DNA of 60,075 nucleotides, filler included, from Sphacelaria rigidula (lineage: Eukaryota), in NCBI GenBank assembly GCA_964200075.2. It is 10 parts of 10 records of this genome, joined end to end, with 100 filler letters (N's around TTAATTAATTAA, not from the genome) between each part and the next. Parts side by side here need not be neighbours in the genome. Positions count along the whole stretch, not along the records: positions 12,038 to 17,955 come from CAXNAA020023500.1; 9 more parts are not named here. One strand, 5' to 3'. A program made the translations under genes and the position numbers. The notes under the pieces were generated by a model that had not been told where the DNA came from, made no database searches, and saw nothing but the letters and a program-made list of their open reading frames with translations. Of the stretch, positions 12,742 through 28,041 are shown piece by piece. Within the stretch, counting starts at the first letter, position 1, and each line of letters begins with the position of its first letter.

Positions 12742-13565
12742 CAAGCTGGGCCAGCCGAGAAGCGATTCTGCAGTTTGCAGGCCCATTATACGGCCAATAC
12801 TTGGAGCTGGACCCTGAAATTTGGTATGGACAATTGAGTAGGGCATAATAAAAAAAATGCTGGCGTACACAAGGTTTTCTCTTTCTTTCATGAGTTTTAG
12901 GGGCATCTTACCGATGTCTGAAAACTGATCATTGCCCTGAACTCATGAAGAAAAAAACTTGTGTACGCCAGTAATTTTTTTCATCATGCCCTACTCATTG
13001 TCCATACCAAACGTCAGGGTCCAACTCCAAGTATTGGCCGTATAATGGGCCGTTTAGTGACAAGAGTCAGATACGTTCGGAACAGTATTTTGCAGGCCAT
13101 TTACCGGCCCACGTTTGGTGTTTGTGTCATGAAACTTTGTGTGGGGCGTGGCTAGGGCATAGTCAACCAAACAGAGTGGGTCAGGTTGATATTTTTCGAT
13201 TTTTTCCACTGGATTAGGGCGTTCTACTATGGTAAAGACCATATTTCACGAGAACGGTCTAACCCTTATGAAAAACTGGAAGGCCCATTATTATTTTTTA
13301 TTCGGCACTCTTTTGTGGTTCTCCACACCAAAATTCGTCGCCATCCGCTAAATCCATCGATCGGGAGTTTCACAGAGATTCTAGTATTAGCGCTATCGCC
13401 CTTAGGTGTAGAAATTACTAGACATGGGGTTTAATCAACGGGCCCAAACTTTTGAGCAGATGGGCACCTTCTCCTTGATTAGACGATCAACACGATATGC
13501 GGATCACGACCCAACTCGTCTGTGTCGATGAGATATTGCTTTTAGAAATCCGTTTTTAGGCCTCG
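12742..13565 (+). mobile_element. Tc1/mariner-like non-autonomous element with TA TSD and internal long hairpin
   Basis: TA|CAAGCTGGGCCAGCC ... AAATCCGTTTTTAGGCCTCG|TA; the right TIR is partly deleted relative to the 38759 copy. Hairpin at 12780-13051 with ~130-bp arms. Confidence 0.7.
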
Positions 13566-14655: not shown

Positions 14656-15159
14656 AACGAGAAAAACTGCACTCTCTTCGGAACCAGATTCACTTAAAAA
14701 GGCCCTCCAAGTACTCTATTCCCAACCGATTCTTTCAACGGTGCCCGCCTCTGTGGTAGAGTCATAATCTCTTCAGTGCGTTTGCGGAAAGAAGAAGGCC
14801 TTCGCAACGATATCATTTGAATGTACACAGCTGGCAAAATTCGCGGATCGCTGGATACATCACTTGAACCATAACATTCACCATGACGGTCGGAATAACT
14901 CACACTGCGGTGCACCAGTCACGGTGTACGGTCGGCACCACACGAGTAGAAATATCATAATACTATCATAAATGCATCATTTGTCGTTTGACGAGCCGTC
15001 AAAGACGCTTTTCAGTGTATATATCCCCTGTAGGCCCCCTCACCTGGCAGTGAGCTGGAACTGAACTTCACCTCATTTGTGCACCTTGCTTTCGGTTATG
15101 GCCGCAACTCCATCTAGGCACACTTGGGGCAGACAGGATCTTGTGTATAGGGGGGTCTT

Positions 15160-15200
15160 CTCTCTTTGCTCGTGGGTGGTGTTGAGTAAACACCAGGGTT
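15160..15200 (-). terminator. Histone-type 3' stem-loop plus purine-rich downstream element of H2B
   Basis: Minus strand AACCCT GGTGTT TACTC AACACC ACCCA CGAGC AAAGAGAG, ~105 nt after the stop codon. Near-identical motif after H2A. Confidence 0.75.
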
Positions 15201-15298
15201 GTTCAACAGAGCTGGGGGAGGTGCGTCATAATATTCACTGCTCCGCAAGTGCTTCTGCTCGTGTGGTTGTCGGACCAAGACCCGCTACGGATGGCCAT

Positions 15299-15649
15299 CT
15301 AGGAAGAAGTGAACTTTGTGACGGCCTTCGTGCCCTCGGACACTGCGTGCTTGGCCAACTCTCCGGGGAGCATCAAGCGCACGGCCGTCTGAACCTCGCG
15401 AGAGGAGAGAGTGGACTTCTTGTTGTAGCGGGTCAGCTTGCCGGACTCGCCTGCCACACGCTCGAACACGTCGTTGATGAATGAGTTCATGATGGACATG
15501 CCGCGCTTGGAGATCCCCGTGTCGGGGTGCACCTGCTTCAGCACCTTGTAGATGTACGACGAGTACGACTCCACCTTCTTGGCCTTCTTTTTCTTGTCTC
15601 CGGCCTTCTTGGGGGCCTTGGCAGACTTCTTCGACGGTGTCTTGGCCAT
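15299..15649 (-). CDS. H2B: Histone H2B, 116 aa, intronless
   Basis: Canonical histone fold: [38 protein letters not shown]...[20 protein letters not shown]. Confidence 0.99.
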
Positions 15650-16014
15650 CTTTACTCTTTCTTGTACGTCAGTGGCTGGAGTGGGGTGCGGTGAGATGTG
15701 GTTGAGGTGGGGTGTGGGGTGAGCTTGAGGCGCGGACTGTACTGTGCGGCGAGTACAGTTTAAAATTCAAAAGTGGTAGTGGAGGAGGCATGCTTATTTA
15801 ATGTTCCTGTTGGCACCTCATGTTTGTGTGAGCCAATCAGCGACCTTTCAACCGTCATAATAGGGGCGTTCTTGAACCTTTTCAAATTTGAATTTTGACA
15901 AACACAGACCCGTCGCACTATTTTGCTCCCGTGACCTTCCCGCCAGCCCACACTTCCATTCACCACCACAACACACATGTTCAACACCCCAGCAATCAAT
16001 CAGCAGCATTAATC
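15650..16014. promoter_or_regulatory. Bidirectional H2B/H2A promoter with central CCAAT box and mirrored TTTGAATTTT motifs
   Basis: 365 bp between divergent ATGs. CCAAT at 15833-15837, AAAATTCAAA at 15762-15771, TTTGAATTTT at 15887-15896. Confidence 0.75.
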
Positions 16015-16392
16015 ATGTCTGGCAAGGGAAAGGGCGGGCGCGGCGAGGGCAAGAAGTCGGTGACCAGGTCTGCTAAGGCGGGTCTGCAGTTCCCGGTCGG
16101 CCGTATCGGCCGGTTCCTCAAGAAGGGCAAGTACGCGTCTCGTGTGGGCGCCGGTGCCCCCGTGTACCTGGCGGCTGTGCTGGAGTACCTGACCGCCGAG
16201 GTCCTGGAGCTGGCTGGTAACGCCGCACGCGACAACAAGAAGGCCCGGATCGTGCCCCGCCACATCCAGCTGGCTGTCCGCAACGACGAGGAGCTAAACA
16301 AGCTGCTCGGCGAGGTGACGATCGCATCGGGCGGCGTGCTGCCCAACATCCACGCTGTCCTGCTGCCGAAGAAGGTCGTGAAAAAGGACTGA
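16015..16392 (+). CDS. H2A: Histone H2A (canonical type, no C-terminal SQ motif), 125 aa, intronless
   Basis: [10 protein letters not shown]...[21 protein letters not shown]...[26 protein letters not shown]...[15 protein letters not shown]. The true start is ATG 16015, not the ORF-track start at 15895. Confidence 0.99.
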
Positions 16393-16467
16393 GCTTCTCT
16401 GGACTTACTATGTGAAGTCTTGAATCGAAGCAGGCCTTCTGTGCCCGCCGCAAGGTGGGGCCAAGAC

Positions 16468-16511
16468 AAACCCCTGGTGTTTTACTCAACACCACCATTT
16501 CAGAAAAGAAA
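16468..16511 (+). terminator. Histone-type 3' stem-loop plus purine-rich downstream element of H2A
   Basis: AAACCCCT GGTGTT TTACTC AACACC ACCA TTTCAG AAAAGAAA; stem at 16476-16493, ~84 nt after the stop codon. Confidence 0.75.
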
Positions 16512-19629: not shown

Positions 19630-21429
19630 CTAAACAAGATCAGCATAACGAACGGCATCATCAATCTGTTTATCGGACGCCACTCCTAGCTCTAACTTCA
19701 CGCTTGAACCCTCCAACGTCTCTACTGATCCCGCACCAACAAACCGGCCAACAGACCCACATACAACTGCCGTTGAACCATAGAGCTGTTCCGCATTCAC
19801 ATGACAACTGCTACTGCTGGAGCTACTTTTACGACCTGCACTGCTCCAATGCCTCAAAGGGCCAGTATGCTTGCTACACAGTCCCATTCCAGCGCCACCG
19901 TGTGTAGAAGATGGAGCTGCCACCTCTACCTTCACTCCTGCTCCTACCCTTGGCACGGAAGACACCTCACGATCAGCCCCTGAGTGTAGCTTGCCCGTAA
20001 GCAACGGTGGTGCTACACCAATCCGCCTGGCAACAGGGTACACACTACGTTGAGCATCAACAACGTCGCTTGTGCCAGAACTCAAGCATGGTTCGCGCTT
20101 GCGTTTAGTTCCTCGCACGTCAGCAACGCTTCCTCCACCACCCTCTGTTATGCTACGGATCGAGGTGACCTCACCAGTGCTGAGCTCTACCGTGTTGTAC
20201 ACTGTAGCTACATCACGCGCAGTAGGATGCTGCCGGCACAATTTTGCCTCATCAAGGTTGTCGTTCTTGAGAATATCAAACTTCAAGCGCCCCTCCTTGC
20301 TAGTCTTGTAGCTCATCACATTCACCATTCCCGCCCTGGCATGCTTAGAGCAGAACTCCGCCTTTTTGGTTCCCGCTACACCATACGACGGCTGCTTCGA
20401 GCAGCCCTGGTCGCTACATCTCTTGCTCACCACATTGACCATTCCCGCCCTGGCATGCCGAGAGCAGAACTCTGCCTTCTTCATTCCTGCTACACCATAA
20501 GATGGGCGCGTGGGGCAGCCCTGGTGGCCACACTTCTTGTTCACCACATTCACCATTCCCGCCCTGGCATGCCGAGAGCAAAACTCCGCCTTCTGGCTTC
20601 CCGCTACACCATACGACGGTATTTTAGAGCAGCCCTCATCGTCGCACTGCTTTGACACAACATGCACCATCCCCCCCCTGGCATGCTGAGAGCAGAACTG
20701 CGCCTTCTTGCTTCCCGCCACACCATATGACGGCCCTTTGAAGCAGCCCTCATCGCCGCACTTCTTTGACACAACATCCACCATCCCCGCCCTGGCATGC
20801 TTGGAGCAGAACTGCGCCTCGTTGCTTCCTGCCACACCATACGACGGTTTCTTCGAGCAGCCCTCGTCACCACACTTCTTGTGCCCCACATTGACCATTC
20901 CCGCCCTGGCATGCTTGGAGCAGAACTCCGCCTTCTTCATTCCTGCTTCACAATAAGATGGGCGCGTGGGGCAGCCCTGGTGGCCACACGCCTTGTGCAC
21001 CACATATACCATTCCCCCCCTGGCATGCTGGAAGCAGAACTCAGCCTTCTTGCTTCCTACTACACCATACGACGGCTGCTTGAAGCAGCTCTCGTCGCCG
21101 CATTTCTTCGTCACCACATCCACCATTCCCGCCCTGGCATGCTGAGAGCAGAACTGCGCCTTCTTGCTTCCCGCCACTCCATACGAGGGCTTCTTCGAGC
21201 AGCCCTTGTCGCCGCACTTCTTTGACACAACATCCACCATCCCCGCCCTGGCATGCTTGGAGCAGAACTCCGCCTTGTAGCCCGGTACACCATACGATGG
21301 TCGCTTCGGGCAGCCCTCATGTATGCACTCTCTTCTCGCCACGCTTGCCATCAGCTCTGTCGCGTGATCTTTTGTTGAAGAGTAACTGCTCGCGGTAGGA
21401 CAATTGGCATAACAGCGGAAGGTTCTCAT
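19630..21429 (-). CDS. EsV-1-7 family cysteine-repeat protein (9 tandem 38-aa C-x4-C...C-x2-H units plus low-complexity tail)
   Basis: Unit KKCGDEGCSKKPSYGVAGSKKAEFCSKHARAGMVDVVS repeated over ~21336-20311, with a degenerate tenth unit ending LCRQH. It matches the EsV-1-7 repeat of Ectocarpus siliculosus virus-1 and brown algal genomes. The start could be Met27 (21351) or an upstream exon. Confidence 0.9.
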   Translation of the reverse strand: MRTFRCYANCPTASSYSSTKDHATELMASVARRECIHEGCPKRPSYGVPGYKAEFCSKHARAGMVDVVSKKCGDKGCSKKPSYGVAGSKKAQFCSQHARAGMVDVVTKKCGDESCFKQPSYGVVGSKKAEFCFQHARGGMVYVVHKACGHQGCPTRPSYCEAGMKKAEFCSKHARAGMVNVGHKKCGDEGCSKKPSYGVAGSNEAQFCSKHARAGMVDVVSKKCGDEGCFKGPSYGVAGSKKAQFCSQHARGGMVHVVSKQCDDEGCSKIPSYGVAGSQKAEFCSRHARAGMVNVVNKKCGHQGCPTRPSYGVAGMKKAEFCSRHARAGMVNVVSKRCSDQGCSKQPSYGVAGTKKAEFCSKHARAGMVNVMSYKTSKEGRLKFDILKNDNLDEAKLCRQHPTARDVATVYNTVELSTGEVTSIRSITEGGGGSVADVRGTKRKREPCLSSGTSDVVDAQRSVYPVARRIGVAPPLLTGKLHSGADREVSSVPRVGAGVKVEVAAPSSTHGGAGMGLCSKHTGPLRHWSSAGRKSSSSSSSCHVNAEQLYGSTAVVCGSVGRFVGAGSVETLEGSSVKLELGVASDKQIDDAVRYADLV

Positions 21430-24400
21430 GTCAGCTCACGAGAAACAACGTTGAAGAAAACATTATCGTCGCACATGAACGGGAGGGACAGGAGCTACCC
21501 GTACCTACTGAAATGACACTTTACATTTACTGATTTCTGTTACTTCAAACCTGGTGCTCAAGGTAATCCGAGCGAATCGGATTTCCTCGCCAATACGGCA
21601 GTGTACAGCATCAATGGAGTACAAGAGGCGAATAGAAGTTGAACCCCTGAACGCATAATACCAAGTCGTGATTCACCGGGCATGATACATGCAGTATGGT
21701 AGAGTTTAGGGCCTGTAGAACACCTGCCAAACATTTTATGAAGCTGCTCTACACTGGCAGAATACCTGACATTGTTGGAGGATATCATATATGTACCTAC
21801 AAGTAGGAGGAAATCGTGCCGATCTCAAAGATGCCTGACCAGATTCCGAAATACTGGCCTGGTTTGGTCCTGTTCTATTTCACTGCTAGGAATATAAATA
21901 GAAGAGGGATGACTTATGTTCTCAACAGCGGTACACGCGACCGTCCAAAGCAAATGATATCAACATTGATACAAAACCTCGAGTGTACACACGCGCAGAA
22001 AAGTATACATATCTGCCGAATCTCAATACACGCGCACATGTGCTCCCATGCATGGATGTCATCCCTTTCGTCTTATCGGGTACCATCGGAAACAAAAGTA
22101 ATGTATTGCTCTGGCTTCCGCTTCAACCACAAGTGAGTTCATATGTTGGGTAACCTGATGTTTGCTTCAGTCACTTTTCTCTTGGACTTCACGACTCGTA
22201 TCGCGTGTACATGGTGTGCATGGTAGTACATGCTCGTTGTCGCCAGGGTAAGAGTGTCATTGCAGGAAACGCCGAAAGTTGAGCGGAGCGAAACACAGTT
22301 GGGAGACACATCGAGGCTTCCAGTGAAGTGCATTGCACATCTGTTGGATGAGTACATCACGACTGTACACGATTGGTGCAAACATTCTAGATGACGCCGA
22401 CATGACCATGGTCGTCACCGTAAAGGTCCCTCCCTCCCTTTACAGTCAGTCCTTGTGGATTCCGGCAGACGCCTGAAAAGGGCGAACTTTTCGAAACGCA
22501 CCCATATCTGACCAAACGTTGGGGGAACGTCTTCTATACTACCAGAATATCACCATTCTTAGACGTACCCTCAAGCGTGATGAGAAATTATCCCGCATGT
22601 GTCGGACATACATCATACAGTGAACATGTACTATTCTACGTGCCTTGAACACATGCGTACATACATATGCCGCGCAGACAAGTGCTACATAAACGGGAGA
22701 GCTACGCTGGTTGGGCACAAACATTTTGAAGGAAACAGGTATTGTGCACATGTGTGGCACATGTGCTTTCAACTGAGGAGATTTTCTATGCTCAGTTCTG
22801 CCCAACGCGTGGGGTACTGTGGTCGTCGTGGTTCGAGGTCAACTGTAAATGTTTGGTGCAAGTTGACGAAGAAAGTGCTTAAACGAATGGAAAGAGCCGC
22901 CGTTCATTTGCTGCTACTGTGACATCTGATTCCATTCCATATTTCTGTGACATGTTGCTTGTCTTCCCAATCATCTTCGCTAAACGAATGTTCCATTACC
23001 CTTCAAGCACCCTTCAAGTGTGCACATGGAACGCCATGCACAAAGGCGGACATGGAACCTGTGAGCAGTGCGCCTGCGCACGCATGTTGATGGTCGGGTT
23101 CTCCCGTGAAAACTTAGCGAAACCAGACACGCGATCCGGCAAAACATAACCCTCCATTTCGGTCATATGCGGTCCGGGGCAGCCGTGTCTTGGAAGCCGA
23201 ACGATTCCCACTAGCAGCACGACCGGTACAGGGTGTTTCAGGGCCTTGATTGAAGGAAAGACGGGGTTACGCATACTCCAGAAACACTAGATGGTGAACA
23301 TTCGTGAGGACATTTGGGTCAAACACGATCGTTTGCAGAGACGCTTGCTCATGCCTCTCTACGTGTGCTAACCTGTGTACTATGCTGCTCTATCGCCAAC
23401 AACACGTTATGTTTCGAGTGGGCACGTTCAATTCAGTAAATTTTGAGTGTGCTCAATGAGACATCGAGATGCATTGAAACAATGAATCTGTCTGACGCGT
23501 ATGGCAAGCTCTCGCGTGACCATCTCTCAGTCGGGCTTAGGTCTCGAGTGACTGTCTGAGAACCGGACGGTAATACTGAACATCTTGAAGAACCCTCGTT
23601 GAACCGCTTCAGGAAGATGGACGCGTGGGGAAAGTACAAATGAAATGCCAGCCATATGAAAACTGCCCATCACACGTAGTACGCACTTTCATATTGTCAT
23701 GTGCCTGGCAATGGCCCATACAGTAAACAAGGTTTGACTGTGAGAACGTCAAACCCTCATGTGTGATGTGCTCCCATCACGAAGGCCATACACCACTACG
23801 ATCACATGTGCCCTGTACGTACTTCGCGTGCCAGTAAAGTACGTCATGCTTCCAAACGTTCGTGAAAATATGTCCAGTCCTACTTGGTGTCTGCCCATGA
23901 CTCCGCTCAAGTTTCACGGCTATATGGTGAAGGTGGTACCTTCCGAACACTATCGTAGTACAGTAGTCAGCGTNNNNNNNNNNNNNNNNNNNNNNNNNNN
24001 NNNNNNNNNNNNNNNNNTTAATTAATTAANNNNNNNNNNNNNNNNNNNNNNNNNNNNNNNNNNNNNNNNNNNNTACCCGATGACTCGCAGGAGGAGTCGG
24101 TAGTGCACCTTTCAAAGCAAGTCGTAGTGTTCGCGGCGTGGGGCCCATGTCATGCATCGTATAAATGGATCAAAAAGAGTCAAAATGGAGTATATATCGA
24201 CATAACTCGTAATGACAAAAGCATTTTTTCTCCCCGTTTTTTTTTCTCCATCAACTTCGTCTTCGCTTCACCTCTCTAACGAACCCAACCATAGGATGAT
24301 CGTCAACGTTGAAATACCCAAACGATTCAACGCCCATAAGTGCACAGACCCATGAGACAGAGGAAGTATGAGTATTCGAGTATTCATAAGAGACCTCTCA

Positions 24401-25586: not shown

Positions 25587-28041
25587 CTAATCTTTGTCGC
25601 CGCTGTCGCCGTCCAACACATTGTCCCGCTTGCCGAAGAGCGCCGCAAACTTCGAGGCCGCACTCTCGCCGACGCTTCGTGTGCTGCCCTTCTTTCCACC
25701 TGCTGCCAGTTTCAGGTTCTGAAGACGCGACATCCAATCCACGACCCATGAAGCAGCAAGTTTCAAGTTTTATTGCAGGAGTTTGGGGGGAACGGGGGTA
25801 TACACAGATGGAATCGTGAGGATCCAGCGTTGAGTAAAACATCCCGGGGGGCCACGAACCGACACCCCGAACACTAGTAGTTCGGTTCAAATCCCGATCG
25901 TGATGGAGACATTATTTCGGTCCCCAGCATTCAGAAAGGTGAACACAAGAGATTACGTGAGAGCGAAGGGTGGGACGAAACACACTCGGTAAATGCCGGG
26001 AGGCTGTGGGAGTGCTCATCTCAGGCTCGCCATTGCAGTGAAGGGAAAGTGTCGGGGGAGAGATGGGTTTGATCCCTTGAGATCACGCGCTCGTCGCGAG
26101 GAGGACGGGAACGTTGAAGGTATAGCGGAAATAAAAACAACCCGTGGACGGGCAGAATACGTCACAGCAACTTCTGGTTTGAACTACATGACCTGCGAAG
26201 CACACGCCCGCCCGCAGCAGCGAAGCGACAGCACGTAACAAGGTGCACGTGCACGCAGCACAATTGTTGGGGTGACGATTATACCCGGCATGTACGACAC
26301 GAAAACTGTTTAGTTGAGTGAAAGAAGCCAACGATGGGACGCCCGCATTTGCCCCGCATTCGCCGCCATTCTCCACGCAACAAAAACGAGGAGACGCGCG
26401 GGGCACCCTAAGAAGCAAGACGCGAACGTACACTTACGCGCACAATGGCGATCTTCTCGTTATTGGTGCTGCATCTATCCAGCGCGGCCATGTAACTGAT
26501 AGGCGTGGGATACTTGGCAACGACGGCCAGAGCGCATTCTGGTCCCACGCCGTTCACCTGATAGAACGAGAGTAACATCGAAACACACATATACTTACAC
26601 TCAGATACGATGGTTTACGCTTGAAATAAAAAGATACATGAAAACGCACCACTCCTGGAAATCCAATCTTTGAGATAAATATCCCCGGTAAAACGATGGA
26701 CTGTACGGTAGCCTCGTTCTCCGCACCGTCCTTCAACGCCAACGGTTCTTCCTCGCCCACCTATGGCCTATCAAAGAGCGCTAGTGCGTGTGATTGTGAG
26801 AGTTATTTCCTGCCGGCACAGACATTTCCCGCCACTTTCCCTCTCCTCATTCTTACCGAGTAGAGGCACTGCGCGAACTTGAGGCTGATCGATGGCTTCT
26901 CAAACTCTTCCATTGGAAGAACGGCGTTGAACTCCCTCAGGGACACCTTGGGCCGGGAGCGGTTGCGAGCGAACTCTCCGACGCTCTCGATACCTTGGCA
27001 AGCCATGAGCTGTACCGCCGGCATGGCAAGAGGTCGACCACACACACGGGAATGTGAATGGGCAACGTCAACCAAAACCCGTCTCAAGTTATTTTTCACC
27101 CACATGCATGAAGGGGGAATGGGTAGGCGGAAGACCCTGTAAAGAAAACATCCACTTCTTAGTATGAGGATCTCAACACAGACGAATGAATTGATAGGCA
27201 GGACAAGGCCAAGACAGCGCTACAACTAGCAGTAACCGAATACCGGCAGCCCAGCCCCTCGAGTCTATGCCAGAGGCGATCCCCCATTTTTTCCACACGC
27301 CCATCAATGCCGAATCTTGAGAGTCATGGTACACAGACCCTTCGAATTTAAGCCTTTGTCCCATTTGCGAGACGAGTCGTATTACTCGTTAGATTTGCGT
27401 ATCCCTTTGGGGACCCATGGACGATTTTGGTTTTTGTGAATCGGCATCATTTCGACTTGAAAATGAGCGAAAATGATGCCGATTCACAAAAACAAGAACC
27501 GTCAATGGGTTTCAAAAGGAAGGGCTAATGTCCCTTTTCCCACTAGTCCTCAATTTCCCGAATGTCTCGTGTCACTCCACCGAGACTCTCCAGCATCAGA
27601 TCTGGTTATTACTCGCAAGGTCCGACTGGCTGCAACTCAAGAGTCGTTGAAAGCGTGAACGCTTTTATTGCGGCGTGATACGAAGCGTCCCGCTTGTGGA
27701 GAAGCAACTGTGACACACCCATGTACGACAGGGGCCAGCGGAAATCGGTAGCACGACAGATGCCAATAAATACCGTACACGTGACCATTTTCGCAGTTTT
27801 GGAGAATCACGTCGCACGGCACCCCCTACACAGAGAGAGAGAGAAAATGTGTCAAGGAAAAACGATCGCGCAGCCACACTACACTCAAATGCCGCGAACA
27901 AAACAAAACGTGCTGTGGCTGTTGCTATTTTGCGCAAGGGACAAGGAGAACACACGCATTCTTCTCCCTTACCTGCCGCGACAAGGACAACAGAAAGGAC
28001 GCAGTGCCTTCCGTCTTCAAAGTGCGATGCACCATGAAGCC
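25587..28041 (-). CDS. MUS81: MUS81-like crossover junction endonuclease, last four exons (28041-27973, 27009-26857, 26557-26438, 25718-25587)
   Basis: All four are phase-0 GT-AG exons. Spliced: GFMVHRTLKTEGTASFLLSLSRQ / ...VSLREFNAV...SISLKFAQCLYS / VNGVGPECALAVVAKYPTPISYMAALDRC...IVR / NLKLAAGGKKGSTRSVGESAASKFAALF...*. This resembles the end of the ERCC4 domain plus tandem HhH of MUS81. The catalytic ERK motif was not seen, and further exons at 28120-28520 are unresolved. Confidence 0.8.

Follow-up and report, generated by a model that had tools for sequence, protein, structure and literature searches.

Do the histone genes of the brown alga Sphacelaria rigidula end in a dedicated 3' processing signal comparable to that of animal histone mRNAs, and how far would such a resemblance extend? 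The question was raised by a divergent gene pair, H2B(-)/H2A(+), on CAXNAA020023500.1, which was recognised from the sequence and the ORF list. H2B and H2A were the only histone genes in the window (i.e., the whole stretch of DNA analysed, 60,075 nt with filler), and each was followed on its sense strand by one hairpin (Table 1). The H2B protein matched the Pfam family Histone (PF00125, E 3.5e-18), and its nearest named proteins were brown-algal H2B with 92%-100% identity. H2A matched both Histone_H2A_C (E 9.5e-19) and PF00125 (E 5.8e-16); no SQ-type C-terminal motif was seen in its translation, from which the protein looks canonical. A CCAAT motif was present at 15833-15837, inside the shared intergenic promoter region.

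Table 1. Positions of the histone gene pair and its 3' elements along the window.
Feature	Position	Strand	Details
H2B coding sequence	15299..15649	-	116 aa; stop codon included; no intron; from ORF list
H2A coding sequence	16015..16392	+	125 aa; stop codon included; from ORF list
Shared divergent promoter region H2B/H2A	15650..16014	.	position only
H2B 3' hairpin	15178..15194	-	stem GGTGTT/AACACC, 6 bp; loop TACTC, 5 nt; 104 nt after stop
H2B hairpin parts	CCCT 15198-15195; GGTGTT 15194-15189; TACTC 15188-15184; AACACC 15183-15178	-	
H2B downstream purine box AAAGAGAGAAGA	15156..15167	-	positions 11-22 after stem
H2A 3' hairpin	16476..16493	+	stem GGTGTT/AACACC, 6 bp; loop TTACTC, 6 nt; 83 nt after stop
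H2A hairpin parts	CCCT 16472-16475; GGTGTT 16476-16481; TTACTC 16482-16487; AACACC 16488-16493	+	
H2A downstream purine box AGAAAAGAAA	16502..16511	+	positions 9-18 after stem

The hairpins behind H2B and H2A

The element common to both genes reads CCCT-GGTGTT-(T)TACTC-AACACC-ACC and starts at the distances from the stop codon listed in Table 1. Both copies have a stem of 6 bp with G-C at the first and second pair, and the sequence following the stem (ACCCAC in H2B and ACCATT in H2A) fits ACC(C)A in each case. The loops are longer than the 4 nt of the metazoan form, and the models accommodated them by inserting one or two extra loop residues. Otherwise, the H2B and H2A 3' regions were unrelated; the single long piece that they shared was a 16-nt exact inverted-repeat arm, which could be lengthened in an alignment across the 1-nt loop indel. 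The pattern GGTGTTN{4,7}AACACC matched twice in the window against 0.04 matches expected (~50-fold), and none of 100 shuffles gave two matches. These observations confirmed two claims of the first-pass annotation of this DNA, namely that both genes end in the same stem-loop and that their 3' regions have nothing else in common. When 66-nt stretches were folded, the minimum-free-energy structure contained the hairpin in both cases; the folding energy alone was not significant (z only -1.5 and -2.3).

A hairpin family in metagenomic relatives

The hairpins were compared with those of metagenomic relatives (H2B 66%-88% identical), a set of loci that are not phylogenetically independent and in which the two copies described here are the only brown-algal ones. 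A GG...CC hairpin of 6 bp with a 4-6-nt loop was found ≤ 200 nt after the stop codon in 74 of 108 distinct H2A/H2B 3' regions, compared with a mean of 1.2 and a maximum of 5 in 200 dinucleotide shuffles. The other 34 regions had no such hairpin, suggesting that the signal was lost in some lineages. Four of the six stem pairs varied on both sides and the first two G-C pairs were invariant (56/56 rows), figures that are inflated by construction because the aligned rows were chosen for perfect stems. Stop codon and hairpin were 17-169 nt apart (median 60), and the 3' flank of the 74 hairpins began with A in 60 cases and carried C as its second nucleotide in 69. The same hairpin type recurred behind H2A, H2B, H3, H4 and H1 individually, on many contigs and in any gene arrangement. 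Loops of 5 nt (15 hairpins) and 6 nt (two hairpins) accounted for 17 of 90 distinct hairpins, which supports the variant loop length proposed in the first-pass annotation. An H2B tree (116 columns, 40 of 70 inner branches open) served only to name near neighbours.

For a covariance model (R1), 56 distinct hairpins with four-nt loops were taken from behind H2A/H2B genes of the metagenomic relatives, and the window was left out. Among its 15 matches in the 60-kb window, the first two were exactly the H2A site (25.5 bits, E 0.00053; 16468-16499 including flanks) and the H2B site (23.8 bits, E 0.0014, on the correct strand; 15172-15202 including flanks), and the third scored 12.1 bits; the E-values are rough owing to a short calibration. 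In the relatives, the model gave 80 matches in 225 kb, of which 73 lay sense-downstream within 300 nt of a core histone gene. Among the genes covered by these 73 were four of five H3 and six of seven H4 genes, none of which were in the training set, and further matches lay behind H1-like ORFs, one of them a Pfam Linker_histone (E 1.6e-14). Phage sequences chosen for the exact core pattern reached up to 20.6 bits, indicating that the score derives mostly from the core and that the genomic context carries the argument. As a specificity control, none of nine giant-virus-type H2B loci (viral contigs, 53%-66% identical) had a match at E ≤ 1. The exact hairpin pattern matched seven times in viral contigs; tblastn gave no histone match in any of the seven loci, and these matches in phage-like contigs were attributed to chance.

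In Rfam, there was no gathering-level match in the window. RF00032, the metazoan SLBP-bound stem-loop, scored 13.7 bits on the H2A copy, compared with its gathering score of 34; no match was listed for the H2B copy at E ≤ 10. In 19 loci of relatives, Rfam gave 19 matches at E ≤ 0.1, each to RF00032; four reached the gathering score and the others scored 24-33 bits, so that the relatives' hairpins form a continuum up to and above that score. Like RF00032, the algal element occupies the sense-strand 3' UTR of core histone genes without introns, has a 6-bp stem with two initial G-C pairs and U-A pairs at the stem top, and is flanked by ACC(C)A on the 3' side and by an A/C-rich sequence on the 5' side. 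In contrast to RF00032, the loop is one nucleotide (H2B) or two nucleotides (H2A) longer than the standard 4 nt, and the 5' flank ends in CCCU, not AAA, which permits a seventh U-A pair. The comparison of loci placed the hairpin in a covarying family that is specific to histone genes. Judged by sequence and context, the element is a real histone 3' stem-loop, a long-loop variant below the Rfam threshold, and very probably a functional one.

The purine box downstream of the stem

The stem and the purine box are separated by ACCCACGAGC in H2B and by ACCATTTC in H2A. The word AAAGA begins 11 nt past the stem in H2B and 12 nt past it in H2A (0-based offsets 10 and 11), in agreement with the earlier description of a purine-rich element about 10 nt past the stem. 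The purine tracts named in that description have their outer ends at positions 15160 and 16511. The H2A offset is the modal one among the relatives, and the location of the H2B box agrees with their purine peak (positions 13-16) and AAAGA offsets (11-12, 0-based).

Among the 90 hairpins, AAAGA started at offsets 9-13 in 29 (17 loci, six stem classes), whereas the controls gave 0/87, 1/90 and 0/90. The positional conservation on which the first-pass annotation had made its reading depend was therefore observed. The purine fraction was 0.77-0.80 at positions 13-15 after the stem against a background of ~0.42. Furthermore, when different histone classes on one contig were compared, the word that they shared in register was longer behind the stem than in front of it or further downstream. 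In 27 pairs, one from each locus, the word after the stem was longer than that before the stem in 22 pairs and shorter in four, with one tie (Wilcoxon p 9e-4), and longer than that further downstream in 23 and shorter in none, with four ties (p 1.3e-5). The box itself differed among lineages. In a separate clade, a GGA-type box followed 11 of 12 hairpins, compared with six of 78 elsewhere, and AAAGA followed none of the 12; some lineages had boxes of the GGAAT or ACGWWGA type that were not purine-only.

These comparisons showed a downstream box in the aligned loci that is fixed in position, common to the histone classes within a contig and different between lineages. This is the behaviour expected of a target co-evolving with a trans-acting guide. 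An AAAGA(G)-core purine box that keeps a short, constant distance on the 3' side of the stem also resembles the HDE, which is read by the U7 snRNP (U7 snRNA, Lsm10, Lsm11, FLASH and CPSF73), although the GGAAT and ACGWWGA boxes of some relatives depart from it. The algal box, 11-12 nt after the stem, is somewhat closer than the vertebrate HDE. Hairpin and box probably constitute a two-part processing signal; for the box taken separately, the balance tips slightly towards a functional second element.

Formation of the histone mRNA 3' end

The reading that we favour, although we give it about an even chance, is that this pair of elements represents the histone mRNA 3' processing signal in its brown-algal form. 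According to this reading, nascent H2A and H2B transcripts would fold the 6-bp GG...CC hairpin, which an SLBP homologue would bind. A second factor, most likely a U7-like snRNP with Lsm10/Lsm11, would recognise the purine box ~10-20 nt past the stem, and the shared CPSF73-type endonuclease would cut in the spacer that separates the two, a few nt past ACC(C)A. Some of the mRNA, if not all, would then end in the hairpin instead of poly(A), and the hairpin would govern stability and translation. Recognition of the box by a U7-like RNA is a tentative proposal, which we consider distinctly less probable than the function of the box as such.

SLBP, Lsm10 and Lsm11 are now reported widely, yet we know of no guide RNA found outside animals. 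A search with the U7 family RF00066 gave no match in the 60-kb window at E ≤ 2, a result that means little given the small fraction of the genome covered, and none in the 19 loci of relatives at E ≤ 0.1. A motif scan for an anti-box followed by an Sm-like site returned four sites in the window. The best of these (~51233, minus strand) was rejected as a U7 candidate, since it lies in T-rich low-complexity DNA, is without a 3' hairpin and folds with a z of -1.1. The same scan of the relatives' loci returned six sites, four of which were read as antisense strands of the histone 3' elements themselves.

The protein components are reported more widely than the first-pass annotation assumed. A eukaryote-wide survey, a 2026 preprint (10.64898/2026.10.14.759114), reports SLBP widely in protists and homologues of Lsm10 and Lsm11 in stramenopiles including Ectocarpus. 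For Physarum, a stem-loop, a purine-rich HDE, SLBP and both Lsm10 and Lsm11 are reported, with no U7 identified (PMC8600027). From the initial interpretation, a histone-specific 3' stem-loop with a long loop and a positioned purine box was upheld, whereas the view that the U7 machinery is essentially metazoan needs revision. The algal arrangement resembles the protist and green-algal systems (Chlamydomonas/Volvox, Physarum and those in 10.64898/2026.10.14.759114), for which a divergent stem-loop with a purine-rich downstream stretch is described and SLBP and Lsm10/11 homologues are reported, with U7 not identified.

The main alternative is that the hairpin is a genuine SLBP-type structure but that the mRNAs are mainly cleaved and polyadenylated downstream, with the hairpin serving stability, translation or cell-cycle control and the box acting as an auxiliary or protein site instead of a U7 target. 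H2B relatives (86%-88% identical) occur in MMETSP-derived protein sets, which we take to be poly(A)-selected transcriptomes and which would then hint at polyadenylated histone mRNAs in related algae. That no U7-like RNA was found in the window or the relatives' loci points in the same direction. A precedent exists in Physarum, whose histone mRNAs combine stem-loop and HDE with a poly(A) signal and occur in poly(A)+ forms for all expressed genes (PMC8600027). Moreover, the distances of 83 and 104 nt between stop codon and hairpin exceed the 25-60 nt of animals given in the survey (10.64898/2026.10.14.759114). In contrast, AATAAA, ATTAAA and TGTAA were absent within 420 nt downstream of either stop codon, a weak argument given that the brown-algal poly(A) signal may differ. 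The fixed distance between stem and box across classes and contigs is easier to reconcile with a ruler-type cleavage signal than with a loosely placed auxiliary element, and the report of Lsm10/Lsm11 in Ectocarpus (10.64898/2026.10.14.759114) also speaks against this alternative. We regard downstream polyadenylation as possible, with a chance clearly below that of the processing signal.

Alternatively, the hairpin alone might be functional, with purine tracts that are fortuitous or reflect local composition. The two boxes in the window share just the 5-nt in-register word AAAGA, compared with means of seven among the relatives' boxes within a contig and four for unrelated pairs. In the nearest 5-nt-loop clade (L023, L025, L028, L029 and L039), the purine stretch is also less strictly placed, with fractions of 0.50-0.85 over positions 3-22. 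However, AAAGA is rare in the window (0.0013 per position) and yet occurs behind both stems at the modal place of the relatives, and L010, the nearest relative on the H2B tree, carries AAGAGAG at the same distance after the stem. A function of the hairpin alone is accordingly improbable. An origin by chance, as the terminal inverted repeats of a gene-carrying mobile element or as a terminator hairpin of a generic kind, as might be suspected from two copies in inverted orientation 1.29 kb apart that bracket the gene pair and from their weak folding z-scores, is highly improbable, since the same hairpin type stands behind each histone class whatever the arrangement, its stem covaries, its pattern is far above expectation in the window and its exact matches in viral contigs adjoin no histone gene; the comparative data contradict this reading, and its terminal-repeat and chance forms were rejected.

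Regarding the processing signal, stem-loops and SLBP are already known to be widespread in protists, and what appears to be the variant aspect of the present sequences is the loop of 5-6 nt. The scan in the survey (10.64898/2026.10.14.759114) demands a 4-nt loop and would thus have missed this form, which also escapes the Rfam threshold; such hairpins are a blind spot of current surveys. That source characterises stramenopile stem-loops as lying further downstream and being less conserved, unlike the sharply conserved hairpin and box of the relatives described here. It was the only source on SLBP or stem-loops in brown algae or stramenopiles that surfaced in our literature search, and its per-clade supplements may already list stem-loops or SLBP of brown algae. 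Two brown-algal histone papers (PMC7784034 and PMC12459048) did not contain the terms 'stem-loop', 'polyadenyl' or 'hairpin', nor did PMC12459048 contain 'SLBP' or 'stem loop'.

The question whether histone mRNA 3' ends are formed under U7-type RNA guidance outside animals too is of long standing. A box that keeps its distance, is common to all five histone classes of a genome and varies among lineages is a possible guide target. Candidate targets are CAAAGA/AAAGAG in this alga and several clades, and sequences of the GGAAT or ACGWWGA type in others. The search key for a guide would be the reverse complement of the local box, followed by an Sm site and then a 3' hairpin. Brown algae and many other stramenopile-type protists might process their histone pre-mRNAs via a U7-like guide RNA whose 5' end co-evolves with the box, a generalisation that we consider less likely than not. 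If true, RNA-guided histone 3'-end cleavage would predate animals, and an SLBP altered to match would recognise the long-looped hairpin. Our results also suggest that the expression of canonical histones in brown algae may be underestimated by RNA-seq on poly(A)-selected material.

The histone gene pair and its 3′ hairpins

H2B and H2A form a single divergent pair within the window, and a tblastn search with H3 and H4 queries from relatives detected no other histone genes there. The closest named H2B proteins were all brown-algal (Sphacelaria, 100%; Laminaria, 97%; Ascophyllum, 95%; Discosporangium, 94%; Choristocarpus, 92%), followed in similarity by xanthophyte, oomycete and diatom proteins. 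Given that the EsV-1-7 family is expanded in brown algae, a neighbouring ORF with nine such cysteine-rich repeats also fits a brown-algal taxon. A CCAAT motif (gagCCAATcagcg) was observed at 15833–15837, within the divergent promoter common to the two genes.

Coordinates of the histone genes, their hairpins and the EsV-1-7 ORF in the window
Feature	Position	Strand	Details
H2B coding sequence	15299..15649	−	ORF list, Pfam confirmed
H2A coding sequence	16015..16392	+	ORF list, Pfam confirmed
H2B hairpin	15194–15178	−	loop TACTC; 104 nt from stop codon to start
H2A hairpin	16476–16493	+	loop TTACTC; 83 nt from stop codon to start
601-aa ORF, nine EsV-1-7 repeats	19633–21435	−	Pfam PF19114, E = 2.6 × 10−142

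Read along the mRNA, the 3′ region of each gene contained CCCT-GGTGTT-loop-AACACC-ACC, followed by ACCCACGAGC and then AAAGAGAGAAGA in H2B, and by ACCATTTC and then AGAAAAGAAA in H2A. The core pattern occurred twice in 60 kb (0.04 expected). Outside this element the two 3′ regions did not align, and the sole long inverted-repeat arm between them was 16 nt. The first-pass annotation, which had described one hairpin element behind both genes in otherwise unrelated 3′ regions, was thus borne out. Folding energy by itself was not significant for the two hairpins (z = −1.5 and −2.3). Rfam gave no match in the window at the gathering level; at a permissive level, RF00032 (the metazoan-type histone 3′ stem-loop family) matched only the H2A copy, scoring 13.7 bits where the gathering score is 34.

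Elsewhere in the window, long hairpin-forming stretches at 12782–13049 (+) and 27407–27516 (both strands) resembled plant/animal miRNA-precursor models. The match to MIR2630 (92 bits vs. a gathering score of 144; E = 3.9 × 10−17) and those to mir-2009 on both strands were well under threshold, and the stretches are probably not the miRNAs in question but inverted repeats of a MITE-like type. The window also contained 801 N positions (assembly gaps) in several places.

A hairpin family with variable stems and loops

The relatives comprised 79 metagenome-contig loci encoding H2B (66%–88% identical), in which 116 genes were located with their stop codons (79 H2B and 37 H2A); 108 3′ regions were analysed after leaving out seven with < 150 nt downstream and one duplicate. 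Of the 108 regions, 74 had, ≤ 200 nt from the stop codon, a 6-bp GG...CC hairpin with full pairing and a loop of 4–6 nt, whereas 200 rounds of dinucleotide shuffling averaged 1.2 such regions and reached 5 at most. Stems varied by lineage yet stayed paired (GGTGTT, GGATTT, GGATAT, GGAGAT, GGTGAA, GGAATT, GGCTCT, GGCCCT and others). Two-sided changes affected four of the six stem pairs among 56 distinct 4-nt-loop rows, but this count is inflated because the rows were chosen for perfect pairing, and the comparison that avoids circularity is the one with shuffled sequences. Run on 69.7 kb from 19 of these 79 loci, Rfam yielded 19 matches at E ≤ 0.1, all to RF00032, four reaching the gathering score and the remainder scoring 24–33 bits. 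Since the relatives' scores extend to the gathering level, the window element represents the divergent end of a continuum reaching the curated family.

The first-pass annotation had suggested a covariance model of brown-algal histone 3′ regions. A covariance model built from metagenomic relatives (R1; 56 distinct 4-nt-loop rows behind H2A/H2B genes, window sequence excluded) picked the two window hairpins as its best two matches with filters off, each in the right orientation (25.5 bits, E = 5 × 10−4; 23.8 bits, E = 1.4 × 10−3); the third match scored 12.1 bits (E = 1.1). Across the 79 loci, R1 gave 80 matches at E ≤ 0.05, comprising the 4-nt-loop H2A/H2B rows themselves (58), 5–6-nt-loop rows (3) and new ones (19). 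Seventy-three fell on the sense strand ≤ 300 nt downstream of core histone genes (H2B, 41; H2A, 21; H4, 6; H3, 5); with no H3 or H4 hairpins in training, a match stood behind four of five H3 and six of seven H4 genes with enough flank. The other seven were located behind H1-like ORFs (five, one confirmed by Pfam as Linker_histone, E = 1.6 × 10−14), behind a contig-truncated H2A (one) and at L026:21–50. In the linker histone H1 genes with hairpin and box (L019, L027, L034, L035 and L038), the reading frame stops about 190–275 nt before the hairpin and shifts near the C-terminus, which suggests an intron. The match at L026:21–50 (−; 20.8 bits, CAAAGG box) was behind no recognised histone ORF, with an H2A-like ORF some 640 nt upstream of it. 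None of the nine giant-virus H2B loci (L087–L095; homologues 53%–66% identical) had an R1 match at E ≤ 1. Phage sequences picked for the exact core pattern scored 12.8–20.6 bits; the core thus accounts for most of the R1 score, and it is the genomic context on which the argument depends.

The variant loop proposed in the first pass, 5 nt in H2B and 6 nt in H2A, recurred in 17 of 90 distinct relatives' hairpins (4 nt, 73; 5 nt, 15; 6 nt, 2). Loops were conserved within lineages, which argues that they are read by a protein. In one 5-nt-loop clade (L023, L025, L028, L029 and L039), the loop was aacat after H2B genes and cacat after H2A genes at several loci, suggesting histone-class-specific reading. 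Longer-loop variants are easily missed, given that R1 recovered only 3 of the 17 at E ≤ 0.05 and that the scan of a 2026 eukaryote-wide survey demands a 4-nt loop (10.64898/2026.10.14.759114).

The downstream box

The box, a purine-rich stretch 3′ of the hairpin and candidate counterpart of the metazoan HDE, was analysed with 0-based offsets from the stem end. Of the 90 hairpins, 29 (from 17 loci and six stem classes) had AAAGA starting at offsets 9–13, compared with 0/87 further downstream, 1/90 upstream and 0/90 at offsets 20–24 in intervals of equal size, so that the purine tract is positionally conserved in other histone genes, as the first reading required. The purine fraction peaked at positions 13–15 (0.78, 0.80 and 0.77; background, about 0.42). 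Different histone classes on one contig had the box in common in otherwise unrelated UTRs. When the longest in-register shared words were compared using one pair per locus (n = 27; 52 pairs in all), the post-stem word was longer than the pre-hairpin word in 22, shorter in 4 and tied in 1 (p = 9 × 10−4), and longer than the word further downstream in 23, shorter in 0 and tied in 4 (p = 1.3 × 10−5), with loci in the box statistics not being phylogenetically independent.

Position-fixed boxes of other types replaced the purine box at several loci (L030, L032, L033, L016, L037, L041, L053; L061, L071). A GGA(A)T-type box (GGAAT/GGAT) at offsets 9–15 marked 11 of the 12 hairpins of one clade vs. 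6 of 78 elsewhere, with no AAAGA in that clade, and another clade had ACGTTGA/ACGAAGA boxes. In the window, where AAAGA has a background rate of 0.0013 per position, it begins at offset 10 behind H2B and offset 11 behind H2A; the in-register stretch common to the two boxes is only 5 nt. L010, the closest neighbour in an H2B tree of poor resolution, carries AAGAGAG at an equal distance.

Implications for histone mRNA processing

The hairpin, ACC(C)A flank, variable spacer and a box that is fixed in position and present in all histone classes have the same anatomy as the two-part histone pre-mRNA processing signal. On this likeness we favour a mechanism in which an SLBP-type (stem-loop-binding) protein would bind the hairpin and a second factor would recognise the box and so fix the point of cleavage immediately 3′ of the hairpin. 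As the chief alternative, the histone mRNAs would mostly receive poly(A) downstream, as in Physarum, where this has been shown even though a stem-loop, HDE, SLBP and Lsm10/11 are present (PMC8600027); that study also records a purine-rich stretch downstream of the stem-loop. No common poly(A) hexamer occurs ≤ 420 nt from either stop codon in the window, although these hexamers may not be the brown-algal signal. For the favoured two-factor cleavage, a co-evolving trans-acting reader fits the boxes, which differ between lineages and are uniform within a genome, and a U7-like RNA is the obvious candidate.

In protists, both histone stem-loops and SLBP are established; a 2008 paper reportedly described them. 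The 2026 preprint covers both as well, records purine-rich downstream stretches in green algae and reports Lsm10 and Lsm11 homologues in Ectocarpus (10.64898/2026.10.14.759114). In two brown-algal histone papers (PMC7784034 and PMC12459048), neither stem-loops nor polyadenylation came up, and the literature searched gave no description of the brown-algal hairpin, although the preprint's supplements may list it. With histone stem-loops in protists already known, the long-loop brown-algal hairpin is a variant; together with the relatives' boxes, the window element is a useful lead in the search for a guide RNA beyond animals.
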